A program made the position numbers and the translations under genes. 64,000 nucleotides of DNA. Origin: Treponemataceae bacterium (GTDB taxonomy: Bacteria; Spirochaetota; Spirochaetia; Treponematales; Treponemataceae). The notes below the pieces were generated by a model, which was given only the letters and a program-made list of their open reading frames with translations, was not told the DNA's origin and ran no database searches. Below are positions 4,783 to 16,611 of this stretch, piece after piece. Each line of letters starts with the position of its first letter. Position 1 is the stretch's first letter. The DNA is taken from NCBI GenBank assembly GCA_024402495.1, contig JAKSTR010000002.1:16708-80707 (forward strand), written 5' to 3'.

Positions 4783-6072
4783 GTGTTTGCGCCGCATATA
4801 ATTACATTTAAAGATTCTGTTACAGAAATTCGTAAAGAACGTTTTGCCGATTCCGAATGTCAGGCTGTTCAAATGCCTGCAACTGTTAATTTAATTGGCG
4901 AACGCGCTTTTGCAAACTGTACGCAGCTTACCCATCTGCTTATTGGCGAAGGCGTAACTGTGATTGAACCTTATGCTTTTGCCGGCTGCACGGCTTTAAC
5001 GCAGGTAATCATTCCGGCAAATGTAATTGAAATTGGTGAAGGCGCTTTTGCAGGATGCTTAAACCTGCGCTACGTGTGCATTTTTGCCGATTTGCAGGTT
5101 TTGCCCAAATATCTTTTTAAGGACTGCCAGAATCTTTGCAAAATCGTTTTGCCGCAAAACCTTATCCGCATTGAATATCAGGCGCTGGCTGGCTGCAAAA
5201 GTCTGGCAAGCGTTAATTTAAGCGAAAGTGTTACCGAAATTGACACCGACGCCTTTGACCGCAGTACAAAAATTGTTACAAAATACGAAAAACCTTTGGT
5301 TCACGCTCACACCACAATAGAAAACGCGCCAGTCAAAAGCGACGTAGATATTCCGGCGTGTCTTCGCACCCAAAACCAGAACTATCATCCCCAGCCGCAA
5401 AATAATTTTGCAGGTACATCCGGTACTGACAATAATGTTCAGCTTTTTGCCAACAGCGGCACTTTTGCAAATTACAGGCAGGCAGAAAATTATGCAAGCG
5501 CACCGGAATATGCGCCAAGTGCAAAACCGCCGGTACAGAATAATTATGCGCCCCAAAACATGCAGAACCAGCTGTATGCGCAAAGCAGTTTTTTCGTTTC
5601 AAATGCAAACGCAGCTGCGGCACAAAACGAAGAAGATTTGGAAGTGCCGGCATATTTGCGCAAACCTTTGCCAAATACCAGTCTGCAAAAACCGGTTGGA
5701 CGCGGCATGGCGTTTTCTCCGGTCAATCAGCCGGTTATGCAAACCAGCCCAAACAGTTCCGGCAGCCAGCCCGGCAGCGATGACGATTTGCAGTACGAAA
5801 TTCCTGCGTGCTTGCGCCAAAAGCCTGAACAGAATTACCAGCCGCAGCAAAACCGGCAGCCGCATCCGGCTTTTACCCGGCAAAATCAGCCGTTACAAAA
5901 CCAGCAGGGCACCAGCTTTTTTGAAGCCGTAAAAAATTATTCCGGGGCTGCCGTTACCGATGTAACAGACCAGTTTTTAGGTACAGCTGCCACGCCAAAA
6001 AACGCAGCGCCTTCTTCCGCCGGCGACACCCTAAGCGACAAAGCCCAAAACGGCATAACCCTGAACTTTTAA
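4783..6072 (+). CDS. cytoplasmic BspA/LRR_5-type leucine-rich-repeat protein with a Q/N/P-rich tail carrying three FtsZ-C-terminal-peptide-like motifs
   Basis: GTG start with AAAGGA SD and no signal peptide. Repeats of the form IGERAFANCTQLTHLLI, IEPYAFAGCTALTQVII and IGEGAFAGCLNLRYVCI. Motifs at 5338-5367, 5629-5661 and 5779-5817. Confidence 0.8.
   Translation: MFAPHIITFKDSVTEIRKERFADSECQAVQMPATVNLIGERAFANCTQLTHLLIGEGVTVIEPYAFAGCTALTQVIIPANVIEIGEGAFAGCLNLRYVCIFADLQVLPKYLFKDCQNLCKIVLPQNLIRIEYQALAGCKSLASVNLSESVTEIDTDAFDRSTKIVTKYEKPLVHAHTTIENAPVKSDVDIPACLRTQNQNYHPQPQNNFAGTSGTDNNVQLFANSGTFANYRQAENYASAPEYAPSAKPPVQNNYAPQNMQNQLYAQSSFFVSNANAAAAQNEEDLEVPAYLRKPLPNTSLQKPVGRGMAFSPVNQPVMQTSPNSSGSQPGSDDDLQYEIPACLRQKPEQNYQPQQNRQPHPAFTRQNQPLQNQQGTSFFEAVKNYSGAAVTDVTDQFLGTAATPKNAAPSSAGDTLSDKAQNGITLNF
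5338..5817 (+). other. three copies of the peptide motif D-x-[DE]-[IV]-P-A-[CY]-L-R inside the LRR protein tail
   Basis: SDVDIPACLR (5338-5367), EEDLEVPAYLR (5629-5661), DDDLQYEIPACLR (5779-5817). Compare the E. coli FtsZ C-terminus DYLDIPAFLRKQ. Confidence 0.8.
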
Positions 6073-6091
6073 ATAGCAAAAACCCATAAAA

Positions 6092-6128
6092 AAAAGCCCA
6101 AAACCTTTTTGCAAGTTTTTGGGCTTTT
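6092..6128. terminator. bidirectional terminator between convergent genes
   Basis: 12-bp stem AAAAGCCCAAAA / TTTTGGGCTTTT with a 13-nt loop. The A/T runs are part of the stem and flanks. Confidence 0.7.
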
Positions 6129-6145
6129 TGCATATTTCTAAGTGG

Positions 6146-6610
6146 TTATGGATTTGGTGGGTTAAACATGTCGTCAAACTGTTGACCTGTTTTACCTACA
6201 ATTGTTGTGGCATTACATTTTTTCAAATCACCAAAACCTGTAACTGTCATTATGTCGCCGTTGATAGTACCAGTTAAAATGCCGCCTGTGCCGTCCATTG
6301 TTATTTTAACTTCATTGTCATTGGCTGTATATGTACCAGCTTTTACACCTGTATATTCATCTGTTATATAAAAATAGGTTGATTTATCAAATGTGAAAAC
6401 CAAATAAGATTTTCCTGATGTAAAATAAAGACCAGTGCAAACCAAAGCAGAAGGGTTGTTTAAATCGTCTTTATCAACCCAAACGCCGGCTGCATTGTCA
6501 ACAGTTGTTGTTGTGCTGTCTTTGCTGTCTCCGCCACCGCCGCCTTTACAGCTGGCAAAAAGCATTGCTAATGCTGCCAAAACACAAAAAATAATTACAT
6601 TTTTCTTCAT
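6146..6610 (-). CDS. small hypothetical lipoprotein
   Basis: 154 aa with a signal peptide, lipobox LFASC and a G5 linker. SD AGGAAA. Confidence 0.8.
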   Translation of the reverse strand: MKKNVIIFCVLAALAMLFASCKGGGGGDSKDSTTTTVDNAAGVWVDKDDLNNPSALVCTGLYFTSGKSYLVFTFDKSTYFYITDEYTGVKAGTYTANDNEVKITMDGTGGILTGTINGDIMTVTGFGDLKKCNATTIVGKTGQQFDDMFNPPNP

Positions 6611-6658
6611 TTTTGTTTCCTTTTTTTATAAAATCATTTTGGTTATAAAAGTGCGCGA

Positions 6659-6689
6659 ATTATACCCCCCCCCGGTAATTTTTTGTCAA
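6659..6689 (-). promoter_or_regulatory. consensus sigma-70 promoter TTGACA-N19-TATAAT with a G9 homopolymer in the spacer (phase-variation candidate)
   Basis: Minus strand: TTGACA (6689-6684), spacer aaaaattaccGGGGGGGGG (G9 = 6673-6665), TATAAT (6664-6659). The site lies 48 nt upstream of ATG 6610. Confidence 0.6.
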
Positions 6690-6857
6690 TCAAAAGTTTT
6701 TACAACGCCTAAAGAAAAAAATTGTAGAAAAATATGTTAATTTCAATAAATTACGCAAAAAAATAGCACAATCTTGCAACAATCTTTAGATTTTTATACT
6801 CTTAAATCATCTTTAATTACGAGTTTATATTATCTAGCCTGAATATCTTTTTATAAA

Positions 6858-6965
6858 TGTACATAAAACGGCTGTAGGCAGGCTCAGCCATGAAAAAAAA
6901 TACGCTGTGCGAAGCACGAGTCTTTTTTTCATGGTGGGGACTGCCGAGAGGCTGTTTTATGTACA
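6858..6965 (+). promoter_or_regulatory. 108-nt imperfect hairpin with a terminator-like tip in the alpha-2-macroglobulin 5' region (attenuator or small-RNA candidate)
   Basis: Outer arms TGTACATAAAAC / GTTTTATGTACA. Inner arms CCATGAAAAAAA / TTTTTTTCATGG. The tip GTGC-GAA-GCAC is flanked by A8 and T7. Confidence 0.4.
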
Positions 6966-7026: not shown

Positions 7027-10000
7027 TTGAATTTATCTAAAAAAGATAACCCGAAATTCAATTTTTCTAAAATAGCAAAAAAAGCACTTTCGCTTTTGCT
7101 ATGCATAACAAGCCTTGCAGCGTGTTCCAAAAATGCAAAGGCAAATGGCGTAAACAGCCAGCCCGGCGATTTTTACGTAATCAGCTGCGACCCGGCTGGA
7201 AAACTTCCTTCAGAAGTTCGGTTTCCTTCTATATATGTGCAGTTTTCTGAACCAGTAGTTGCACTTGAAAAACTTGGCGAACAAAGCGACAAGTCTGACG
7301 TTTTTTCAATTGAACCAAAAATTGACGGCGTTTTCAGATGGTATGGCACAAGCCTTCTGGCTTTTGAATGTGCCGATGCCGTTGTGCCGCAAATGGAATA
7401 CAAGGTAAAAGTTAACGGCAACCTGAAATCAATTAACGGTACCCAGTTAACGGGCGAAACCGAATATACTTTTACAACCGAAGAATTAAAAATTACAAAC
7501 TTTGTGCCCGGATATTCGGCACGCAAAGAAGAAAATACAATTTCAAGCGAAGATTATTACGATTATTATTATTCGTCTTACGGCAATTTGAACGATCTGG
7601 ATTTAACTTCTGCTGCGGATTTGGCTGTATTTTTCAATTACCCGGTAAATGCGTCGGTTACAGGTTCTTTTATTGAACTGCGCGATGAAACCGGCAAAGT
7701 TTACAAAACCGAAGCCAGCGCAATTGAAGGCGAAAACGCCCTGCTTGTAAAAGTTAAAGACACAATGCCGGAAAACACCGGTTTTCAGCTTGTGCTGAAA
7801 GAAGGCGCCTGTTCGGAAAAAGGCTTTTTAGGCAAAAGCGAAGAACAGATTAAAGAATTCCACACGTTAAAAACATTCACGTTTAATTATGCAGACAGCG
7901 ACCGGCGCAGTTACGGCAAGTACAGCAACCCGGTATTTTTATATTTCAGCCACCGCATAGACCCGAATGCGGCAGAATGGGTCAGCAAAAACGTAACGAC
8001 AAAGCCTTCAATGCCAGTCAGTGCCGAAAACGTAAGTATTTCGGGCAATTCGGTAATGATTCACAGTTTGCCTGTTAATTTTGAACAGACCTATACACTT
8101 TCGCTTGCAGCCGGCTTAAAAGATGCTTACGGTCGCGCCACCACATCTTCTGAAGAAATTGAAGTAACCGTGCCGAGTGCCGCAAGCATGGCAACTTTTA
8201 AAGATTACGGTCACGGCATTCTTGAAGCCCAGTTTGAACCGAAACTTGCATTTCAATACCAGAACATTCTGGACGGTTCTTATTACAGCGTAAATGGCGA
8301 AACCGTAAAATACGACGAAAGCAATGTACCTAAAAATACAAGGGTAACGGAAGTTGTAGACCTTGCGCCGTATTTGAAGAAAATTAAAGACCGCTATTTT
8401 GGTCACGTAAATTTTTCTGCAAATATTGTCGTTAAAGACAATTACGACCGCGACTATACGTATACCCACAATAACAGCCAGGTTATTCAGGTTACAAACC
8501 TAGGCGCAACCGTGCGTTACGCCTATAACAAGGCCGTTGTTATGGTTAACTATCTGGATACAGGCAAACCGGTTGCAAATGCAGATGTAGCCTTTCTGGT
8601 TGTTCCGGGCAACAAGAACAGCTGGATTGCTTCGATGGAAACAATCCTGAACGAAGTTTCCATGTTTGACAAAGATTACCGCGGCTACGATTTTACGCCG
8701 ATGGGAATTGCCAGAACCGACGCAAACGGTCTTGCCGTAATTGATTTTGCCGAAACTGAAAAATTTTCAACGCTGGCGGATAAACGAGGCGCACCGATTA
8801 CGCTGGGCGACATTATGGGCGATAACCGCCACTACGGCTATACGCCTGTCATTGAGGTTTCATGCGAAGGCGACCGTCTGGTATTCAACCCGGACATTAC
8901 CTATATGTGGTCTACCGGCGCAAATTATTGCCGCGACGCAACCCACGGCGACGCACAAATTACCAAAACATTCCTTTTTACAGACCGCGGCTTGTACAAA
9001 CCGGGCGAAAAACTTTCGTTCCGCGGAGTTGACCGCGACTTGAAGCTTAGCCAGTACAGTGCATACACCGGCGCTTATACTTTGACCGTAAGGGAAAGCC
9101 GCTGGCAGGGCAAGGAAATTTACAATACCAAAGGAACCTGTACCAAAAACGGAAGCTTCTGGGGCAGCATTCGTTTGCCGCAAGACCTTGAACCGGGCAG
9201 TTACGAAATTGTATACGAACGCGCCGGTACAAACGAGCGCATGTACGAATATTTTACGGTTGCATATTTTGAACGCCTGCGTTTTTCTGCCAGCGCCAGT
9301 ATTGCAGACCAGACCTACGTGCGCGGCGACCGTGTAGACGCAACCGTAAACGCCGAATATCTTGGCGGCGGCAGTTTGGGCGGCTGCAACTTTACCGCTT
9401 CGTGGTTCCGCGAACCAACTTATTTCCGCATCAGCAAACCCGAATTTGCAGAATGGCGCTTCGGTCCTGTTCAGGGTTACGACAACCGTTCGTTCCTTGG
9501 GCGCGAAACCGGCGTTTTGGGCAGCAACGGCAGCGGCAGCGTCAGCACAACCAGCGGCAGCGAACAGCTGAAAGGCATGGCGTACCAGTACCGTACCGAA
9601 ATGCGCGTAAGCGATTCTGCCGGGCAGGAAATTAGTGCCAGCGCAAGCACAGTCGTTCACCCGGCGGCTTTTTATATTGGTTTAAGCCCTGCAAAAAATC
9701 TTGCCGGTTTTGCGACCAAAGGCAAGGAACTTGACTTTGATTTCAAGCTTGTACAGCCAAACGGAAACGCTCCGCTGGACAACCAGCTGCCGGCAAAAAA
9801 GGCTGATAAAAAAATCAAGCTGGAACTTTTGCGCGAAAACTGGAAAATCGTTCAGCAGATGGGCATTGGCGGCACAATCAATACCCGCTACGTAAAAGAA
9901 ATGGTAAACGAAATTACCAGAGACATTGATTTGCAGAACGCGGGTTCATTCAATTTTACCGTGCCGAAAGGCGGTGCCTATATTCTTCGCCTTTCTACCA

Positions 10001-12975
10001 CAGACCGCAAAGGCAACGATGTTGTTACCGAACGGCGTTTTTATGCAAGCGGCAGCGAATGGCGCTATTTTGGCAACCAGAGCGAAGAAATTAAGCTTAT
10101 TTGCGACAAAGATGAATACGCCGAAGGCGATACCGCAAAAATCATGCTGCAAAGCCCTATTGAAAAGGGAACATATTTAATCACCGTAGAACGCGATTCT
10201 ATTATCAGTCAGGAAGTCCGTACTTTTGACCAGAGCGTAAGCATTATTGATTTGCCGGTTAAGGCAGAATATCTGCCGGTTGTTTATGTTACAGTTTCAA
10301 GCTTTTCGCTGCGCAGCGGTGAACCGGCTGAAGATTACGACAGCCCTGACCTTAACAAACCGAAAGGCTATTTTGGCGTTGCGCCGGTACACGTAAATAC
10401 CGAAGGCAAATCAATGGATCTGGCTATCAGCACCGACAAGCCTTCTTACAAGCCGGGCGAAAAAGCCACTGTTTCATTAAAAGTTTCACGCGGCGGCGTA
10501 CCGGTGGAAGGCGCTGAACTTTCGTTTATGGCGGTAGACCGCGGCGTAATTGACCTGATTGATTACCACGTTCCCGATCCGATGAAGTTTTTCTACAGCG
10601 AAAGCTGCTTCCCGCTGAGCTGTAACGGCGGCGACAGCCGTTCACTTTTGATTGACCCGGTACGCTATGCGGCTAAAAATCTTTTTGGCGGCGATGCAGA
10701 AAGCGACGATGACAAAATGAACGAGCGCAAAAACTTTGACCCGACTGCGATTTTTGAACCTTGCATCATAACCGACGCAAACGGTATTGCAAAAGCCGAA
10801 TTTAACTGGCCGGATACTTTGACGACATACCGCATGACCGCGTTTGGCGTTAAAGACGACCATTTTGCAGTTAAAGAAAGCGAAATCAATGTCGCAAACC
10901 CTATTTCGGTACGCGAAGTTTTGCCGCGGCGTTTGCGCGTTGGCGATATCAGCGAAGCCGGCGTTGTAATTTCTAACCTTGAAGCAAGTGCGCAGAACGT
11001 TACTGTTTCAATGGAAGTTTTTGAAGGCATCGAAAAATCCGGTCAGCCGGCGGAAGTAGACGGAATTGTTAAACAGCCGGGTTTTGCCCGCATGATTGGC
11101 AAAACTGAAGAAACTGTAAAAGTTGGCGCAAATACAACGCTTCCTGTAATGTTCCCGTTTGAAGCACAAAACGACGGTTTTATTACCGTTCAGTTTACGG
11201 TTAAATCAAGCCTTGTAAACGAACGCATATTGAAGCCTTTGCAGATTGACCGCCCGATTATTTACGAAACCGTTGTTACCACCGGCGAAACCGGCGATGA
11301 CAAGCAGGCTTTTGCAAAAGAACAGGTAAAACTTCCGCAGGTTTTTGATAAATCTTACGGAACTTTGTCGCTGACCCTGGATGCAACACGCCTTGGCGTT
11401 CTTAAAGAAGCCGTAAACTATTGTTTCAGATACCCATACGGCTGTCTGGAACAGCGCAGCAGTGCAATTTTGCCGCTTGTTCTTTTCAGCGATTACATCA
11501 AGGCGTTTGACCTTAACAGCGAAGTTAAGAACCCTAAAAAAGTAATTGAAAAGGAAATTAAGGACTGGGGAAAATATCAGAAATCAAGCGGCGCATTCCC
11601 GTACTGGCCAAGCGGCTATTACGAAAGCCTGCCTGTTACCCTGCGCATTGCAGAAATTGTAGGCATTGCCCAAAGCAAAGGCTATTCTACAAACGCAATC
11701 AACACGCGCAGTCTTTTTCAGTATATCGAAGCCCAGATTGACGCAGAACTTGCAAAAGAACATCCGAATACGGCAATGCTCGCCTATGCAAGCTATGTTT
11801 TAACCGGTTTTGAAAGCAAAAACCTGAAACAGCTTTATGCAGAATCTGAAGTAATAAAAGATGCCTTGACCATGGTAGGAAAGGCTGAAAAAGCTTCAAT
11901 CAGCGATATGTGTTTTGCGGCTTTGGCTTATAAAAAACTTAACAACAACGTAAAAGCCTTGGATTTGCTTAAACAGGTTCAGGGTTACTTTAAGCCGACA
12001 ACCCGCGGTCTTGATATTACCGACCCGGCAAGATGTTCTTACTGGTACTGGTTTGGCGGCAACAGCGACGCATATTCTGCGGCACTTAAAGCTTATTCCG
12101 TAATTAACCCGGAAAGCGACTATTTAGGCCGTCTGGTATTTGAACTTTTGCAGATTCAGAAAGCCAGCCGCGGATACTGGCGCAGTACCGCAAGCACCGC
12201 CCGCGTTCTGGACGGTTTTGCAACTTATATTGAAGCCCTGAACCTTGAAAAAACTGATTTTACGGCAGAAGCTTTGATTGCCGGTAAAAGCGTGGAAGTT
12301 AACAAGTTTAAGGGTCTTGGTGCAGAACCGGTTACCAAAACTTTTGCCTTTAACGACAATGCTTTTGACGGAATTGCGGAAAACACCGCTTTTGATGTTG
12401 AGTTCAGCAAAAAAGGCACGGGCAATTTGTTCTATACAATGGTTCTTAAATATCCGCTTTGGGCAAACGAAATGACAGCCCGCGACGAAGGTTTGTGTGT
12501 ATTTATGGAATACGTTGATATAGAAACAGGAAAAACCGTTGCCGCGGATAAGCTGGAAAGCGGAAAAACATACAAAGCCAAAGTTATGGTAAGTTCTACC
12601 AAAGACCGCACCTTTGTTGCCTTGCGCGCGCCAATTCCAGCCGGATGCGAAGTTTTGAATGCGGCGTTTGTTACCACCGGTACTTATTCAGACTACGCAG
12701 AAGAAACCAAAGAAAGCAGTGATGATTATTACGATGATTACTACTACTACGATGACGATTACGGTTATTCGTTCAACATGCTTTCTAACCAGACCATTTA
12801 CGACAACGAAGTTCAGTACTTCTGGGACGATTTCCCGCGCGGACGCCAGAGCGTAGACTTCCTGTTCCGTGCAGTGCGCAAAGGTACTTACCAGACACCA
12901 AGCGCAACAGTTGAATGTATGTACGAACCGGAAATCTTTGGACGGTCTGCCGGTAAAGTTTGGAAAGTTGAATAA
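7027..12975 (+). CDS. bacterial alpha-2-macroglobulin-family lipoprotein with thioester site
   Basis: 1982 aa. TTG start with SD GAGGAGGGG. Lipobox LAAC. Thioester motif GCLEQ at 11440-11454. Followed by pbpC. Confidence 0.9.
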   Translation: MNLSKKDNPKFNFSKIAKKALSLLLCITSLAACSKNAKANGVNSQPGDFYVISCDPAGKLPSEVRFPSIYVQFSEPVVALEKLGEQSDKSDVFSIEPKIDGVFRWYGTSLLAFECADAVVPQMEYKVKVNGNLKSINGTQLTGETEYTFTTEELKITNFVPGYSARKEENTISSEDYYDYYYSSYGNLNDLDLTSAADLAVFFNYPVNASVTGSFIELRDETGKVYKTEASAIEGENALLVKVKDTMPENTGFQLVLKEGACSEKGFLGKSEEQIKEFHTLKTFTFNYADSDRRSYGKYSNPVFLYFSHRIDPNAAEWVSKNVTTKPSMPVSAENVSISGNSVMIHSLPVNFEQTYTLSLAAGLKDAYGRATTSSEEIEVTVPSAASMATFKDYGHGILEAQFEPKLAFQYQNILDGSYYSVNGETVKYDESNVPKNTRVTEVVDLAPYLKKIKDRYFGHVNFSANIVVKDNYDRDYTYTHNNSQVIQVTNLGATVRYAYNKAVVMVNYLDTGKPVANADVAFLVVPGNKNSWIASMETILNEVSMFDKDYRGYDFTPMGIARTDANGLAVIDFAETEKFSTLADKRGAPITLGDIMGDNRHYGYTPVIEVSCEGDRLVFNPDITYMWSTGANYCRDATHGDAQITKTFLFTDRGLYKPGEKLSFRGVDRDLKLSQYSAYTGAYTLTVRESRWQGKEIYNTKGTCTKNGSFWGSIRLPQDLEPGSYEIVYERAGTNERMYEYFTVAYFERLRFSASASIADQTYVRGDRVDATVNAEYLGGGSLGGCNFTASWFREPTYFRISKPEFAEWRFGPVQGYDNRSFLGRETGVLGSNGSGSVSTTSGSEQLKGMAYQYRTEMRVSDSAGQEISASASTVVHPAAFYIGLSPAKNLAGFATKGKELDFDFKLVQPNGNAPLDNQLPAKKADKKIKLELLRENWKIVQQMGIGGTINTRYVKEMVNEITRDIDLQNAGSFNFTVPKGGAYILRLSTTDRKGNDVVTERRFYASGSEWRYFGNQSEEIKLICDKDEYAEGDTAKIMLQSPIEKGTYLITVERDSIISQEVRTFDQSVSIIDLPVKAEYLPVVYVTVSSFSLRSGEPAEDYDSPDLNKPKGYFGVAPVHVNTEGKSMDLAISTDKPSYKPGEKATVSLKVSRGGVPVEGAELSFMAVDRGVIDLIDYHVPDPMKFFYSESCFPLSCNGGDSRSLLIDPVRYAAKNLFGGDAESDDDKMNERKNFDPTAIFEPCIITDANGIAKAEFNWPDTLTTYRMTAFGVKDDHFAVKESEINVANPISVREVLPRRLRVGDISEAGVVISNLEASAQNVTVSMEVFEGIEKSGQPAEVDGIVKQPGFARMIGKTEETVKVGANTTLPVMFPFEAQNDGFITVQFTVKSSLVNERILKPLQIDRPIIYETVVTTGETGDDKQAFAKEQVKLPQVFDKSYGTLSLTLDATRLGVLKEAVNYCFRYPYGCLEQRSSAILPLVLFSDYIKAFDLNSEVKNPKKVIEKEIKDWGKYQKSSGAFPYWPSGYYESLPVTLRIAEIVGIAQSKGYSTNAINTRSLFQYIEAQIDAELAKEHPNTAMLAYASYVLTGFESKNLKQLYAESEVIKDALTMVGKAEKASISDMCFAALAYKKLNNNVKALDLLKQVQGYFKPTTRGLDITDPARCSYWYWFGGNSDAYSAALKAYSVINPESDYLGRLVFELLQIQKASRGYWRSTASTARVLDGFATYIEALNLEKTDFTAEALIAGKSVEVNKFKGLGAEPVTKTFAFNDNAFDGIAENTAFDVEFSKKGTGNLFYTMVLKYPLWANEMTARDEGLCVFMEYVDIETGKTVAADKLESGKTYKAKVMVSSTKDRTFVALRAPIPAGCEVLNAAFVTTGTYSDYAEETKESSDDYYDDYYYYDDDYGYSFNMLSNQTIYDNEVQYFWDDFPRGRQSVDFLFRAVRKGTYQTPSATVECMYEPEIFGRSAGKVWKVE

Positions 12976-12977
12976 AA

Positions 12978-13054
12978 GTTAAAAGCCGGGTTTTTCAGAA
13001 TCAGATTTCAGAACAAGTCTGGAATGAAGGTTTTCTAAAAGCCCGGCTTTTAAC
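12978..13054. repeat. 13-bp perfect inverted repeat spanning a 51-nt loop just after the A2M stop (terminator-like)
   Basis: GTTAAAAGCCGGG (12978-12990) pairs with CCCGGCTTTTAAC (13042-13054). No clean T-run follows. Confidence 0.45.
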
Positions 13055-13206
13055 CATAAAACCTGTGACCGATATTTTTTAGCGCTCCGGCATTTTTTCA
13101 GTTTGCCGGGGCGTTAAAAATTTTTCAATTTTGAAAATGCAGAACGACCGCGGATATTTGTACCGCGCTTTGTTTTGTAAAAGTTCATAAAAACCCTTAA
13201 AATATT

Positions 13207-15489
13207 TTGAAAAAATTATTTAATACCGCCAGAATGCCAGAAATCTTACAAAAAATTCCGCCTGTACCGGCTTTTTTTAGCAGAATATTAAAAATTATTT
13301 TTGTTCTTGCCGCAGTTTTTCTGGTATTTTGGCTAAGCCTTTTAATCATTCCTTTTAAGCCCCTTAACCGGTTTATAAACCGCCCGTGCAGCACCCGTTT
13401 TTACGACCGCAACGGAATTCTTCTGCAAATTAGCAGCGTGGACGACGGATTGCGCCGGGAATGGACGGATCTGGAAAAAATTCCCCAGTCTGTGCAGCAG
13501 GCATTTATTGAAGCCGAAGACAAAAACTTTTACCGCCATCACGGCGTTGACATTCTGGCAATTTTCAGGGCGCTTGGGCAAAATACCAGGGCACAAAGCC
13601 GGGTAAGCGGCGCTTCTACCATTACAATGCAGCTGGCGCGAATGGTTGTGCCCCGGCAGTCGGCAAATGTAACGCTTTGGCAAAAAATGAAGGAAACTTT
13701 TAACGCCCTGCGCATTGAAGCCAAATTGAGCAAAAAGCAGATTCTGGAACTTTATTTGAACAATGTGCCCTTTGGTTTTAGAACTGAAGGCGTTACAAGT
13801 GCGGCGCGTAATTTTTACGGCGTGCAGTTGCACCAGCTTTCTTTTGAACAGATTGAAACGCTGGCGCTTTTTCCGCGCCGACCTGCAACTTATATACAGA
13901 AAGTGCCCGGTGCCGCCGTATTTGAATACCCGAACAATGCGCCGCATTTTGTAAACTTTGTAAAAAATCTGTACGCCGGCAATTTGGGCGGCAATTTTCA
14001 GATAGATTTAACCGGTAAAAAAACTGGCGCAAATGCAAAAAAAGCAAATTATACCCGGCTTCCTCCGGATTTGTATCTTTCAATTGACCTGCCGCTAACC
14101 GAAGAATGCCGGAGCCGGCTTTTTCAGACCAGCCTGGATTACAAAACGGCGCGAATTAACGACGGCGCGGCATTTTTGATTGACAATATTACCGGCGAAA
14201 TTCTGGTCTGGTGCGGCGGTACAGATTTTGACCGCGCCGATAACGGTCAGGTTGACGGCGTTCTTGCCAGAAACCAGACCGGCAGTTCTACCAAGCCTTT
14301 TTTATACGCCGCGGCTTTGCAGAACGGCTTTTATCCGGCTTCCGTTTTGCCGGATGTACCGATGGATTTTGGCACGGATCAGGTTTATGTGCCGCAGAAT
14401 TTCAACAACCGCTTTAACGGTCCGCAGCTTTTCCGCACCTGCCTTGCTTCCAGCCTCAACATTCCGGCGGTTTTTTTGCTTTACCGTCTGGGCGTTGATC
14501 AGTATTGCCGGGTTTTGGACAGTCTGGGGCTTTTTTCTATTAAAAACCAGCGCGAAAATCTGGGCTTGTCTTTGGCGCTGGGGGCTGGCGAAGTTAGCCT
14601 TTACGAATTGGGCAGGGCGTTCAGCGTTTTTAGCCGCGACGGTACCGTGCCCAAATTAACGATTTTTGCCCAAAAGCCCGGCTACAAAACCGGCGTTTTA
14701 AGCGAAGTTTTTACCAAAGACACCAGCCGCATTGTCTGCAACATGCTTTCGGATTATGACGCCCGGGCGCTGGGTTTTGGTTTTTCCAAAATATTTGATA
14801 CGCCGTATCCGGCAATTTTCAAAACCGGCACGTCGAATCAGTTTCAGAATATTGTGGCGCTTGGCGCAACGCCCAGATATACCGCCGCGGTTTGGATGGG
14901 CAATTTAAGCGGCGAAACCGTTATCGGCGAAACGGGCAGTTCTATTCCGGCTAAAATCGTGCGTTTTTTGCTGGACAGCCTGCAAAAAAAAGGCGAAAAG
15001 CCCGAATTTATGCCGCCGGAACAGTTTGAAAAACGCCGTATCTGCGCTTTAAGCGGCATGGGCGCAGGCAAAAGCTGTCCGGCGGCTACAGCTGAATATG
15101 TAAGAAAAGGCGAAAAAATTGAAAAATGCAGCTGGCATTATATTGATGCAGGCGGCAAAGTGCAGGTTAAATACCCTAACGAATATCAGCGCTGGCTTGG
15201 CGGCAAGAACATGAACGGCGAACTTAAATTTGAAGGCCGTTTCAGGTTTTTGTATCCGCTGAACGGCGCGGTTTTTGTTTACGATTCTTCTTTAAGCCGG
15301 AACGAACAGCAGCTGCGCATCGATTTGCTTGGCGGCAATGAAGAAACGGCGGAATTGTTTTGCGACGGTGTTTCTATCGGTATAAAAAGCAGGCCGTTTT
15401 CGTGGTATTTGCCGCTTAATCCCGGCGTGCACCAGTTGCAGGCTTATTGCGGTACTGCCACCGACGCGATAACGATTACCATAAAATAG
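13207..15489 (+). CDS. pbpC: penicillin-binding protein 1C (bifunctional transglycosylase/transpeptidase)
   Basis: GT51 motif EDKNFYRHHGVD. Transpeptidase motifs SSTKP (SxxK) and KTGTS. TTG 13207 or ATG 13234 could be the start. Sits immediately downstream of the A2M gene. Confidence 0.88.
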   Translation: MKKLFNTARMPEILQKIPPVPAFFSRILKIIFVLAAVFLVFWLSLLIIPFKPLNRFINRPCSTRFYDRNGILLQISSVDDGLRREWTDLEKIPQSVQQAFIEAEDKNFYRHHGVDILAIFRALGQNTRAQSRVSGASTITMQLARMVVPRQSANVTLWQKMKETFNALRIEAKLSKKQILELYLNNVPFGFRTEGVTSAARNFYGVQLHQLSFEQIETLALFPRRPATYIQKVPGAAVFEYPNNAPHFVNFVKNLYAGNLGGNFQIDLTGKKTGANAKKANYTRLPPDLYLSIDLPLTEECRSRLFQTSLDYKTARINDGAAFLIDNITGEILVWCGGTDFDRADNGQVDGVLARNQTGSSTKPFLYAAALQNGFYPASVLPDVPMDFGTDQVYVPQNFNNRFNGPQLFRTCLASSLNIPAVFLLYRLGVDQYCRVLDSLGLFSIKNQRENLGLSLALGAGEVSLYELGRAFSVFSRDGTVPKLTIFAQKPGYKTGVLSEVFTKDTSRIVCNMLSDYDARALGFGFSKIFDTPYPAIFKTGTSNQFQNIVALGATPRYTAAVWMGNLSGETVIGETGSSIPAKIVRFLLDSLQKKGEKPEFMPPEQFEKRRICALSGMGAGKSCPAATAEYVRKGEKIEKCSWHYIDAGGKVQVKYPNEYQRWLGGKNMNGELKFEGRFRFLYPLNGAVFVYDSSLSRNEQQLRIDLLGGNEETAELFCDGVSIGIKSRPFSWYLPLNPGVHQLQAYCGTATDAITITIK

Positions 15490-15633: not shown

Positions 15634-16611
15634 TTACTGCTTTTTAGATTTTTTGCTGTAAAGCCAGCACAAAAACATGCCCAGCAGACTGGCGGCAATC
15701 ATGCCGAGGCACAGAATTTGCCCGGTAGAAATGTTAAAAACCGAAACATTAAAATAAATCGGCGAATCGGGCTGTGCCGCAATGCGGTAACCCAAATCGC
15801 TGTCCGGCTCTCTAAAATATTCAATTATAAAGCGGAAAAAACCGTAGCCGCCGGTATACAGACAGGCAAAAAAACCGTCAAAAGGTTTTTTGCGGCGCAA
15901 AAGCCACAGTATCAGCCACAATACAACGCCTTCAAAAAAAGCTTCGTACAGCTGGCTTGGGTGTCGCGGCAAATTTACCAGCGTCTGGTTTTCTGCAACT
16001 TTTATGCCGCAAACGTTTACAATCGTTTTCACCCAGTCCAGGCTGAGCGAATATTTTTCGGCATCCGGAAAAATCATTCCCCACGGCACGGTGGTAATTC
16101 TTCCGTAAAGTTCGCCGTTAAAAAAGTTGCCCAGCCGCCCAAAGGTAAAACCCAGCGGAATGGAAACGCACATTACGTCAATCCATTTAAGTGCCGGCTG
16201 TTTTTTTACAAAGCACCATAGCAGCATGCCGAACAAGCCGCCAATCCAGCCGCCGTGGTACGACATTCCGGCATAGCCCGTAAAATTACCGTATTCGTCA
16301 AAGGGCACAAAAATGCGCAGCGGATGCTGCCAGTAATAGAGGGTCGGGTCGTAAACGAGGGTGTAAAAAATGCGCGCGCCAAGCACCAGACAAATTATTC
16401 CGCACAAAAAAAAGCTGTAAATTTCGTCAGCCGCGGTTTCTTCGTCTTTAAAGGTAAGCGCGCCTTCTTTTACCTGCCTGCTGAAAACAAAATAGGCTGT
16501 ACCGAATGCAAAAACGTACATCAATCCGTACCAGCGCAAATGTTCCAAAAACGGCACACCGGGAAAAATCGACGGATTTATCCATGCTGGATAATTTATA
16601 AATAAAGGCAT
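15634..16611 (-). CDS. lgt: prolipoprotein diacylglyceryl transferase
   Basis: 325-aa polytopic membrane protein with the Lgt signature HPSQLYE. SD AAGGAA. Confidence 0.9.
   Translation of the reverse strand: MPLFINYPAWINPSIFPGVPFLEHLRWYGLMYVFAFGTAYFVFSRQVKEGALTFKDEETAADEIYSFFLCGIICLVLGARIFYTLVYDPTLYYWQHPLRIFVPFDEYGNFTGYAGMSYHGGWIGGLFGMLLWCFVKKQPALKWIDVMCVSIPLGFTFGRLGNFFNGELYGRITTVPWGMIFPDAEKYSLSLDWVKTIVNVCGIKVAENQTLVNLPRHPSQLYEAFFEGVVLWLILWLLRRKKPFDGFFACLYTGGYGFFRFIIEYFREPDSDLGYRIAAQPDSPIYFNVSVFNISTGQILCLGMIAASLLGMFLCWLYSKKSKKQ

Follow-up and report, generated by a model that had tools for sequence, protein, structure and literature searches.

A conserved poly-G tract in the promoter spacer of a hypervariable lipoprotein gene of uncultured Treponemataceae, a candidate phase switch

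Transcription of the Treponema pallidum gene tp0126, which encodes an OmpW homolog, depends on a promoter with a poly-G tract between its -35 and -10 elements and peaks at a spacer length of 17 nt (PMC7864442). This is the closest described case to the promoter considered here, which was found in a 64-kb stretch of DNA from an uncultured Treponemataceae bacterium (the window, meaning the whole stretch that was analyzed). Both are treponemal sigma-70-type promoters with a spacer poly-G, and both precede an envelope-protein gene. However, the genes are unrelated, OmpW in one case and most likely a small lipocalin-like lipoprotein in the other, and the organism is not T. pallidum. In the window promoter, the -35 and -10 hexamers match the consensus perfectly, and the tract is immediately adjacent to the -10 element. 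Within-isolate variation and its effect on transcription have been demonstrated for tp0126, whereas the variation described here is between consensus sequences. The literature searched describes poly-G promoter variation in no treponeme other than T. pallidum.

The porA gene of Neisseria meningitidis also has a poly-G tract in the -35/-10 spacer, and its expression is graded as the spacer departs from 17 nt (PMC7864442). In addition to the differences in phylum and gene, contraction of the porA tract takes the spacer below 17 nt, whereas the 19-nt spacer in the window is above the optimum, and therefore loss of G's here would be expected to raise expression. Other T. pallidum genes for putative surface proteins, tprE, tprG, tprJ, and tprL, are preceded by poly-G tracts of 7 to 11 nt (mostly 9 in tprL); tracts of 8 G's or fewer give higher expression, and the mapped transcription start sites (TSS) are ca. 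4 nt downstream of the tract (PMC7864442). The tpr tract is not a classical -35/-10 spacer. In contrast, TATAAT follows the tract in the window, the predicted TSS is ca. 13 nt downstream, and the genes are not homologous. The initial annotation of the window had likened this design to that of phase-variable surface genes in Neisseria and Haemophilus and to the poly-G tracts of T. pallidum tpr promoters. The window promoter is not of the tpr type because a perfect -10 element is located between the tract and any plausible TSS.

In overall architecture the locus most resembles the Vlp system of Mycoplasma hyorhinis, in which promoter and leader are conserved, the mature parts diverge, and the promoter contains a homopolymer. 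The vlp genes are single-gene lipoprotein units, each of which is switched by insertions and deletions in the promoter homopolymer (PMC10502178). However, the Vlp tract is poly-A rather than poly-G, and the vlp genes are clustered, with mature regions composed of size-variable tandem repeats, whereas at least two unlinked copies are found here, encoding a compact beta domain without repeats. Citti and Wise (1995) reportedly placed the Vlp homopolymer between the -35 and -10 elements.

Promoter anatomy and rarity of the G tract

The lipoprotein gene and its predicted promoter are encoded on the minus strand of the window and comprise the following features.

6692 to 6701, minus strand: A/T-rich stretch AAAAACTTTT, just 5' of the -35 element, at the upstream edge of the family-wide conserved block
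6684 to 6689, minus strand: -35 hexamer TTGACA, perfect consensus, kept in the 9 homologs that reach this far, L008 excepted
6674 to 6683, minus strand: remainder of the spacer outside the G tract, AAAAATTACC, 10 nt
6665 to 6673, minus strand: G9 homopolymer GGGGGGGGG (C9 on the plus strand), adjoining the -10 element; the proposed slippage-prone element
6659 to 6664, minus strand: -10 hexamer TATAAT, perfect consensus, conserved in homologs (TATAAC in L003, TACAAT in L014)
6611 to 6652, minus strand: predicted 5' untranslated region (UTR), with the TSS placed ca. 7 nt past the -10 element
6621 to 6627, minus strand: A7 run within the predicted 5' UTR, polymorphic, with 6 or 7 A among strains
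6618 to 6620, minus strand: Shine-Dalgarno sequence GGA, within the predicted 5' UTR
6146 to 6610, minus strand: lipoprotein gene, 154 amino acids, with an open reading frame (ORF) that starts with MKKNVIIFCVLAALAMLFAS followed by C, a signal peptide and lipobox

The coordinates of all promoter parts were rechecked in the window. Each agreed with the initial annotation, which had reported perfect TTGACA and TATAAT hexamers, a 19-nt spacer, a G9 run from 6673 to 6665, and 48 nt from TATAAT to the ATG (6610). Its call of a 154-amino-acid lipobox lipoprotein was borne out by the signal peptide and lipobox in the ORF, and the G9 tract, which it had singled out as the only long G/C run, is the sole G/C homopolymer of at least 7 nt in the 64-kb window.

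The full spacer, AAAAATTACC plus GGGGGGGGG, is 19 nt long. The -35 hexamers that could be read instead to bring the spacer to 17 or 18 nt, GACAAA and TGACAA, were inspected and match the consensus at only 2 of 6 positions, and thus the 19-nt reading stands. The automated promoter scan allows spacers of 16 to 18 nt only, and therefore this promoter is absent from its list. No significant RNA structure was detected in the 5' UTR (z = 0.28), in which the Shine-Dalgarno sequence is free, ruling out a regulatory RNA structure in this region and leaving the promoter as the obvious control point. A search of the whole window against Rfam at gathering thresholds returned no match.

The promoter and the tract are both rare in the window. 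The pattern TTGACA-N15-21-TATAAT occurred once on the two strands of the 64 kb, compared with 0.05 occurrences expected from shuffled sequences. Runs of at least 5 G or C numbered 6, compared with ca. 46 expected from an order-1 Markov model of the dinucleotide content, which indicates strong avoidance, and a G/C run of at least 9 was present in none of 100 order-3 simulations of the window. A/T runs of at least 5 were abundant (754). In 38.5 kb of related loci, the homologous promoter tracts were the only G/C runs of at least 6. The single hexamer pair against an expectation of 0.05, together with the depletion of G/C runs, demonstrates that the promoter and its tract are not a chance feature.

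The pattern of conservation suggests that the hexamers behave like a real promoter: they are within a block that is conserved family-wide, is found in two unrelated genomic contexts, and starts ca. 12 nt 5' of the -35 element. An alignment of 7 upstream regions placed the onset of conservation at AAAAACTTTT, and blastn matches between the window and copies at a second locus (locus B, described below) began at 6699 to 6701. The stretch at 6692 to 6701 may be an UP-like element. From its position and conservation, the predicted promoter appears to be the one used by the lipoprotein gene.

The lipoprotein cassette, its loci, and its neighbors

The block common to unrelated contexts starts just 5' of the -35 element, and therefore the unit consists of promoter, gene, and terminator. 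This cassette, which carries its own promoter, 5' UTR, and terminator around a lipoprotein leader and a hypervariable lipocalin-like domain, is monocistronic and self-contained, and it is present at two or more loci in uncultured Treponemataceae. It can be divided as follows.

6473 to 6701, minus strand: conserved 5' block with promoter, UTR, leader, and linker, defined by alignment and blastn
6149 to 6472, minus strand: hypervariable region encoding the mature domain, in which blastn found no similarity between the window and L009
6088 to 6130, minus strand: bidirectional intrinsic-terminator-like hairpin, GCCCAAAAAC...GGTTTTGGGC and then T8, conserved at all loci

The DNA of the 5' block was 84 to 89% identical to that of the locus-B copies and 98.7% identical to that of the second allele at the window's own locus (blastn). 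The conserved codons, 1 to 44, encode the signal peptide, the lipobox with Cys21, and the linker GGGGGDSKDSTTTT, and the 41 nt that encode GGGGGDSKDSTTTT hardly vary, synonymous positions included. The remainder of the protein is a hypervariable all-beta domain. Leaders were 84 to 100% identical between most allele types (ca. 71% for P0007), compared with 29 to 49% amino acid identity for mature domains. The hairpin at 6088 to 6130 is the conserved 3' end of the cassette, within a 3' conserved block at 6086 to 6149. In addition, it has the form of a terminator for the convergent BspA-type leucine-rich repeat (LRR) gene (4783 to 6072). The part of that gene for the Q/P-rich C-terminal half of the protein contains an 18-nt in-frame insertion/deletion (5847 to 5864) relative to L002.

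At locus A, the context in the window, the cassette is flanked by an alpha-2-macroglobulin gene and, at its other end, by the BspA-LRR and SlyX genes. At locus B it is flanked by a gene for a 267-amino-acid protein and a metallophosphatase gene on one side and a Na/Pi cotransporter gene on the other. One metagenome-assembled genome (MAG) contains both MJ196_00765 and MJ196_07855, and thus at least two paralogs coexist in one genome. Locus A is dimorphic. The mature domain in the window is 29% identical to that of L009, L012, and L014, whereas the flanks are 98.4 to 98.7% identical. The boundaries of this dimorphism are sharp, one just past the conserved leader and linker and the other at the stop codon. 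The ORF was intact in all eight locus-A sequences, and differences in the lipoprotein gene within an allele type were mostly nonsynonymous.

One scenario for this pattern is variation in two layers, in which the conserved 5' and 3' blocks would serve as recombination anchors for swapping mature domains among at least two expression loci while the G tract would independently set the expression level. Domain swapping would explain how alleles only 29% identical are present in strains with flanks ca. 98.5% identical. The allelic dimorphism is the one observation in its favor, and we consider the two-layer scenario unlikely. The carriers of such a system would be uncultured treponemes that are possibly host-associated. 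No silent donor cassettes were found in the window when it was searched with all mature domains (tblastn); the expressed gene was the only match apart from weak ones at 49.2 to 50.2 kb, which are inside an unrelated ORF of 670 amino acids and were rejected as chance.

The lipoprotein is identical to MCQ2593771.1 (MJ196_00765) from a Treponemataceae MAG. An AlphaFold2 model (pLDDT 79) has ten strands and a C-terminal helix. Neither a Pfam match above threshold nor a match to Tpr proteins was found. Lipocalin_4 (PF13648) was matched by four of eight family members, in each case below threshold (best E value, 0.02), and remote profile relatives carry Lipocalin_4, DUF5640, or Pallilysin barrels. 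The structure search revealed no significant match in the PDB, as the Foldseek matches were weak and limited to FABP/lipocalin-like folds (E ≥ 0.018; TM ca. 0.3). The product is thus most likely, though not established to be, a small lipocalin-like lipoprotein; it has a signal peptide, a lipobox, and a hypervariable mature domain and may be exposed on the surface. The family is tiny, with 7 clusters among 5.8 billion proteins and 6 matches at E ≤ 1e-10 among 1.84 billion representatives. Scans of JGI metagenomes with family peptide patterns and with the invariant leader 29-mer found no family member, GTDB representative genomes contained a single family locus, and an exact-protein look-up returned no record for P0007. 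We regard the family as a previously undescribed, very rare group of hypervariable lipocalin-like lipoproteins.

The tract is in a region shared with a divergent gene for a bacterial alpha-2-macroglobulin (Pfam; TTG start at 7027; 1982 amino acids), an arrangement to which the initial annotation had drawn attention. The divergent gene is present, with its start 354 nt from the G tract, but the relationship is positional only. A functional link between the cassette and alpha-2-macroglobulin was rejected on account of the different neighbor at locus B and a terminator-like palindrome between the tract and the alpha-2-macroglobulin gene. This imperfect palindrome of ca. 105 nt (6860 to 6963) is located between the lipoprotein promoter and the alpha-2-macroglobulin start. 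Its predicted RNA fold has an energy of -52.5 kcal/mol (z = -7.9), and its center, a GTGC-GAAG-CAC hairpin between A8 and T7 runs, resembles a bidirectional terminator. The palindrome is present in a single copy in the window and has no Rfam match. Five Logan contigs (L002, L009, L011, L012, and L013) stop within the palindrome or close to it. The alpha-2-macroglobulin has the lipobox LAAC, and its TTG start is preceded by a GGAGG Shine-Dalgarno sequence. The next gene encodes a PBP1c-like transglycosylase/transpeptidase. A2M-PbpC is the usual bacterial pairing. The gene lgt, for prolipoprotein diacylglyceryl transferase, adjoins this pair on the opposite strand; together these genes occupy 7027 to 15489 and 15634 to 16611.

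Tract length and spacer across copies

The initial annotation had proposed comparing the tract between strains. Eleven copies from consensus contigs, the window included, were compared at locus A (allele types a1 and a2) and locus B. L010 ends 4 nt before the ATG and thus has no promoter information, and L014, which begins downstream of the -35 element, was absent from the -35 comparison. The a2 allele is represented by runs SRR21151029, SRR28408158, and SRR19882019, and locus B by SRR17543912 and SRR17543914.

Locus A, a1, window: G9, spacer 19 nt
Locus A, a1, L002 (SRR17543908): G9, spacer 19 nt
Locus A, a1, L011 (SRR17543910): G9, spacer 19 nt
Locus A, a1, L013 (ERR11637157): G9, spacer 19 nt
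Locus A, a2, L012: G8, spacer 18 nt
Locus A, a2, L009: GGGGTGGG, an interrupted tract, spacer 18 nt
Locus A, a2, L014: at least 8 G at the contig end, -10 element TACAAT
Locus B, L004: G9, spacer 18 nt
Locus B, L006: G9, spacer 17 nt
Locus B, L008: G8, spacer not scored because the -35 element is disrupted near the contig end
Locus B, L003: GGGGGAG, spacer 16 nt, -10 element TATAAC

The tract was G9 in six copies, G8 in two, truncated at 8 or more G's in one, GGGGTGGG in one, and GGGGGAG in one. At least 8 G's were therefore present in 9 of 11 copies, and spacers of 16, 17, 18, and 19 nt all occurred, the non-G part being 10 nt at locus A and 8 to 9 nt at locus B. Judged by these consensus sequences, the promoters of this family have a conserved and family-specific G tract whose length, like that of the spacer, differs between alleles and loci. 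The interrupted runs of L009 and L003 resemble "locked" derivatives.

Two of the copies end close to the promoter. L014, a 12.7-kb contig, stops after exactly eight G's (L014 positions 1 to 14 cover the tract and TACAAT, in place of TATAAT). A de Bruijn assembly would stop at the tract if its length was mixed in the sample. Mixed tract lengths, mixed strains, or a drop in coverage are all compatible with this stop, which is thus only a hint of mixed lengths. L008 (positions 1 to 40) has G8 and an intact -10 element, but its -35 position reads GTTAGTTCA rather than GTTGACA. This sequence may be unreliable because it is close to the contig end. The L008 copy is related to L004, and its mature domain (P0003) is 82% identical to that of P0002.

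Homopolymers are error-prone, and at the A7 (6621 to 6627) and T8 (6088 to 6095) runs the window is one base longer than the Logan contigs L002 and L009. It might therefore be suspected that the G tract or its length is a product of sequencing or assembly. However, G9 was also present in three Logan contigs of the window's allele that were assembled independently from the short reads of different runs, making an assembly slip unlikely, and G8 to G9 was found at paralogous loci from other samples. An artifact is effectively refuted.

Although tract length differed among alleles and loci, it was identical, G9, in all four independent a1 samples, and the tract state followed the allele lineage, with 9 G's in a1 and 8 nt in a2. 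Furthermore, within the same 300 nt, the A run at 6621 to 6627 and the T run at about 6715 to 6721 (T7) varied by one base among near-identical strains in a pattern independent of allele type. With all a1 copies at G9 while nearby A/T runs differed, the G tract is not demonstrably less stable than other homopolymers. These observations are what would be expected if a genuine promoter had a G tract that is simply an inherited part of its spacer and changes on an evolutionary time scale, with no high-frequency switching and with fixed expression for each allele. Every length difference observed in the consensus contigs was between lineages, and neighboring A/T runs varied at least as much as the tract. 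Expression would then be low from the 19-nt copy in the window and higher from copies with spacers of 17 to 18 nt. However, T. pallidum tprL likewise has a dominant consensus of G9, yet 7 to 11 G's are found within isolates (PMC7864442). In addition, a run of G8 to G9 has been kept at both paralogous loci and by alleles that share only ca. 30 to 50% identity in the mature domain, in a genome from which G/C runs of 5 or more are otherwise purged, a persistence that is hard to explain without selection for the tract. To our knowledge, G/C runs of 9 are intrinsically prone to slippage in all bacteria that have been studied. A passively inherited tract is therefore possible, but we consider it rather less than an even prospect.

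Selection could also maintain the G run for something besides its mutability, in which case G9 would be the functional form and a 19-nt spacer would not represent an "off" state. The run might be the binding site of a regulator; it might form a stiff, A-form-like poly(dG).poly(dC) segment and thereby change the spacer's effective length or twist; or the G's at -14 and -15 might act like an extended -10 element. Exactly G9 was found in 6 of 11 copies with three spacer lengths (17, 18, and 19 nt), and selection may thus act on G9 itself rather than on spacing. Nearly all copies share GGGTATAAT. In L008 the tract and the -10 element are present without a recognizable -35 element, and a perfect -10 element preceded by G at -14 might let the promoter function in part without its -35 element. 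However, G8, GGGGTGGG, and GGGGGAG variants occur in intact genes, indicating that no precise tract sequence is required, and no regulator could be identified here. Furthermore, GC-rich spacers adjoining the -10 element generally weaken rather than strengthen sigma-70 promoters. For these reasons, selection for such a property is quite improbable.

A candidate promoter switch and its significance

With moderate confidence, we favor the interpretation that slippage in the G tract adjusts this promoter, as a rheostat or a phase switch, and so controls a variable lipoprotein that is probably exposed on the surface. In this proposed mechanism, the G9 tract would form the downstream half of the spacer in a sigma-70-type promoter, and slipped-strand mispairing would add or remove one G at a time. 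Because the tract directly abuts the -10 hexamer, each gain or loss would shift the spacing of the -35 and -10 elements. About 7 to 8 G/C or more are needed for slipped-strand mispairing, a length that G9 reaches. G9, with its 19-nt spacer, would be the weak or "off" state found in the window copy, and G8 (18 nt) and G7 (17 nt) would be progressively stronger states, so that loss of one or two G's from the window copy would raise expression. The tract would thereby act as a heritable and reversible rheostat or phase switch. That spacer length controls promoter strength in this organism is extrapolated from reporter work in E. coli, Neisseria, and T. pallidum, and the earlier expectation that G loss would switch on a very strong promoter likewise rests on E. 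coli rules. By analogy with those systems, tract length may fluctuate at high frequency within populations.

The phase-variation switch proposed in the initial annotation thus retains several lines of support: the promoter is conserved, the tract is polymorphic between strains and alleles, spacers range from 16 to 19 nt, tp0126 provides a precedent, and the gene encodes a hypervariable lipoprotein, the kind of product that is usually under phase variation. The uniform G9 of the a1 samples weighs on the other side. It is plausible that the window promoter is an added case of the mechanism already known from T. pallidum tp0126 and N. meningitidis porA, and even if the tract does switch, the general understanding of phase variation would be unchanged. 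Switching would, however, extend transcriptional phase variation by promoter poly-G beyond T. pallidum to uncultured Treponemataceae. A run of 8 to 9 G's in a genome that avoids G/C runs would then be a simple signature for contingency loci in spirochete MAGs, and these hypervariable lipoproteins would be marked as probable targets of host or phage selection.
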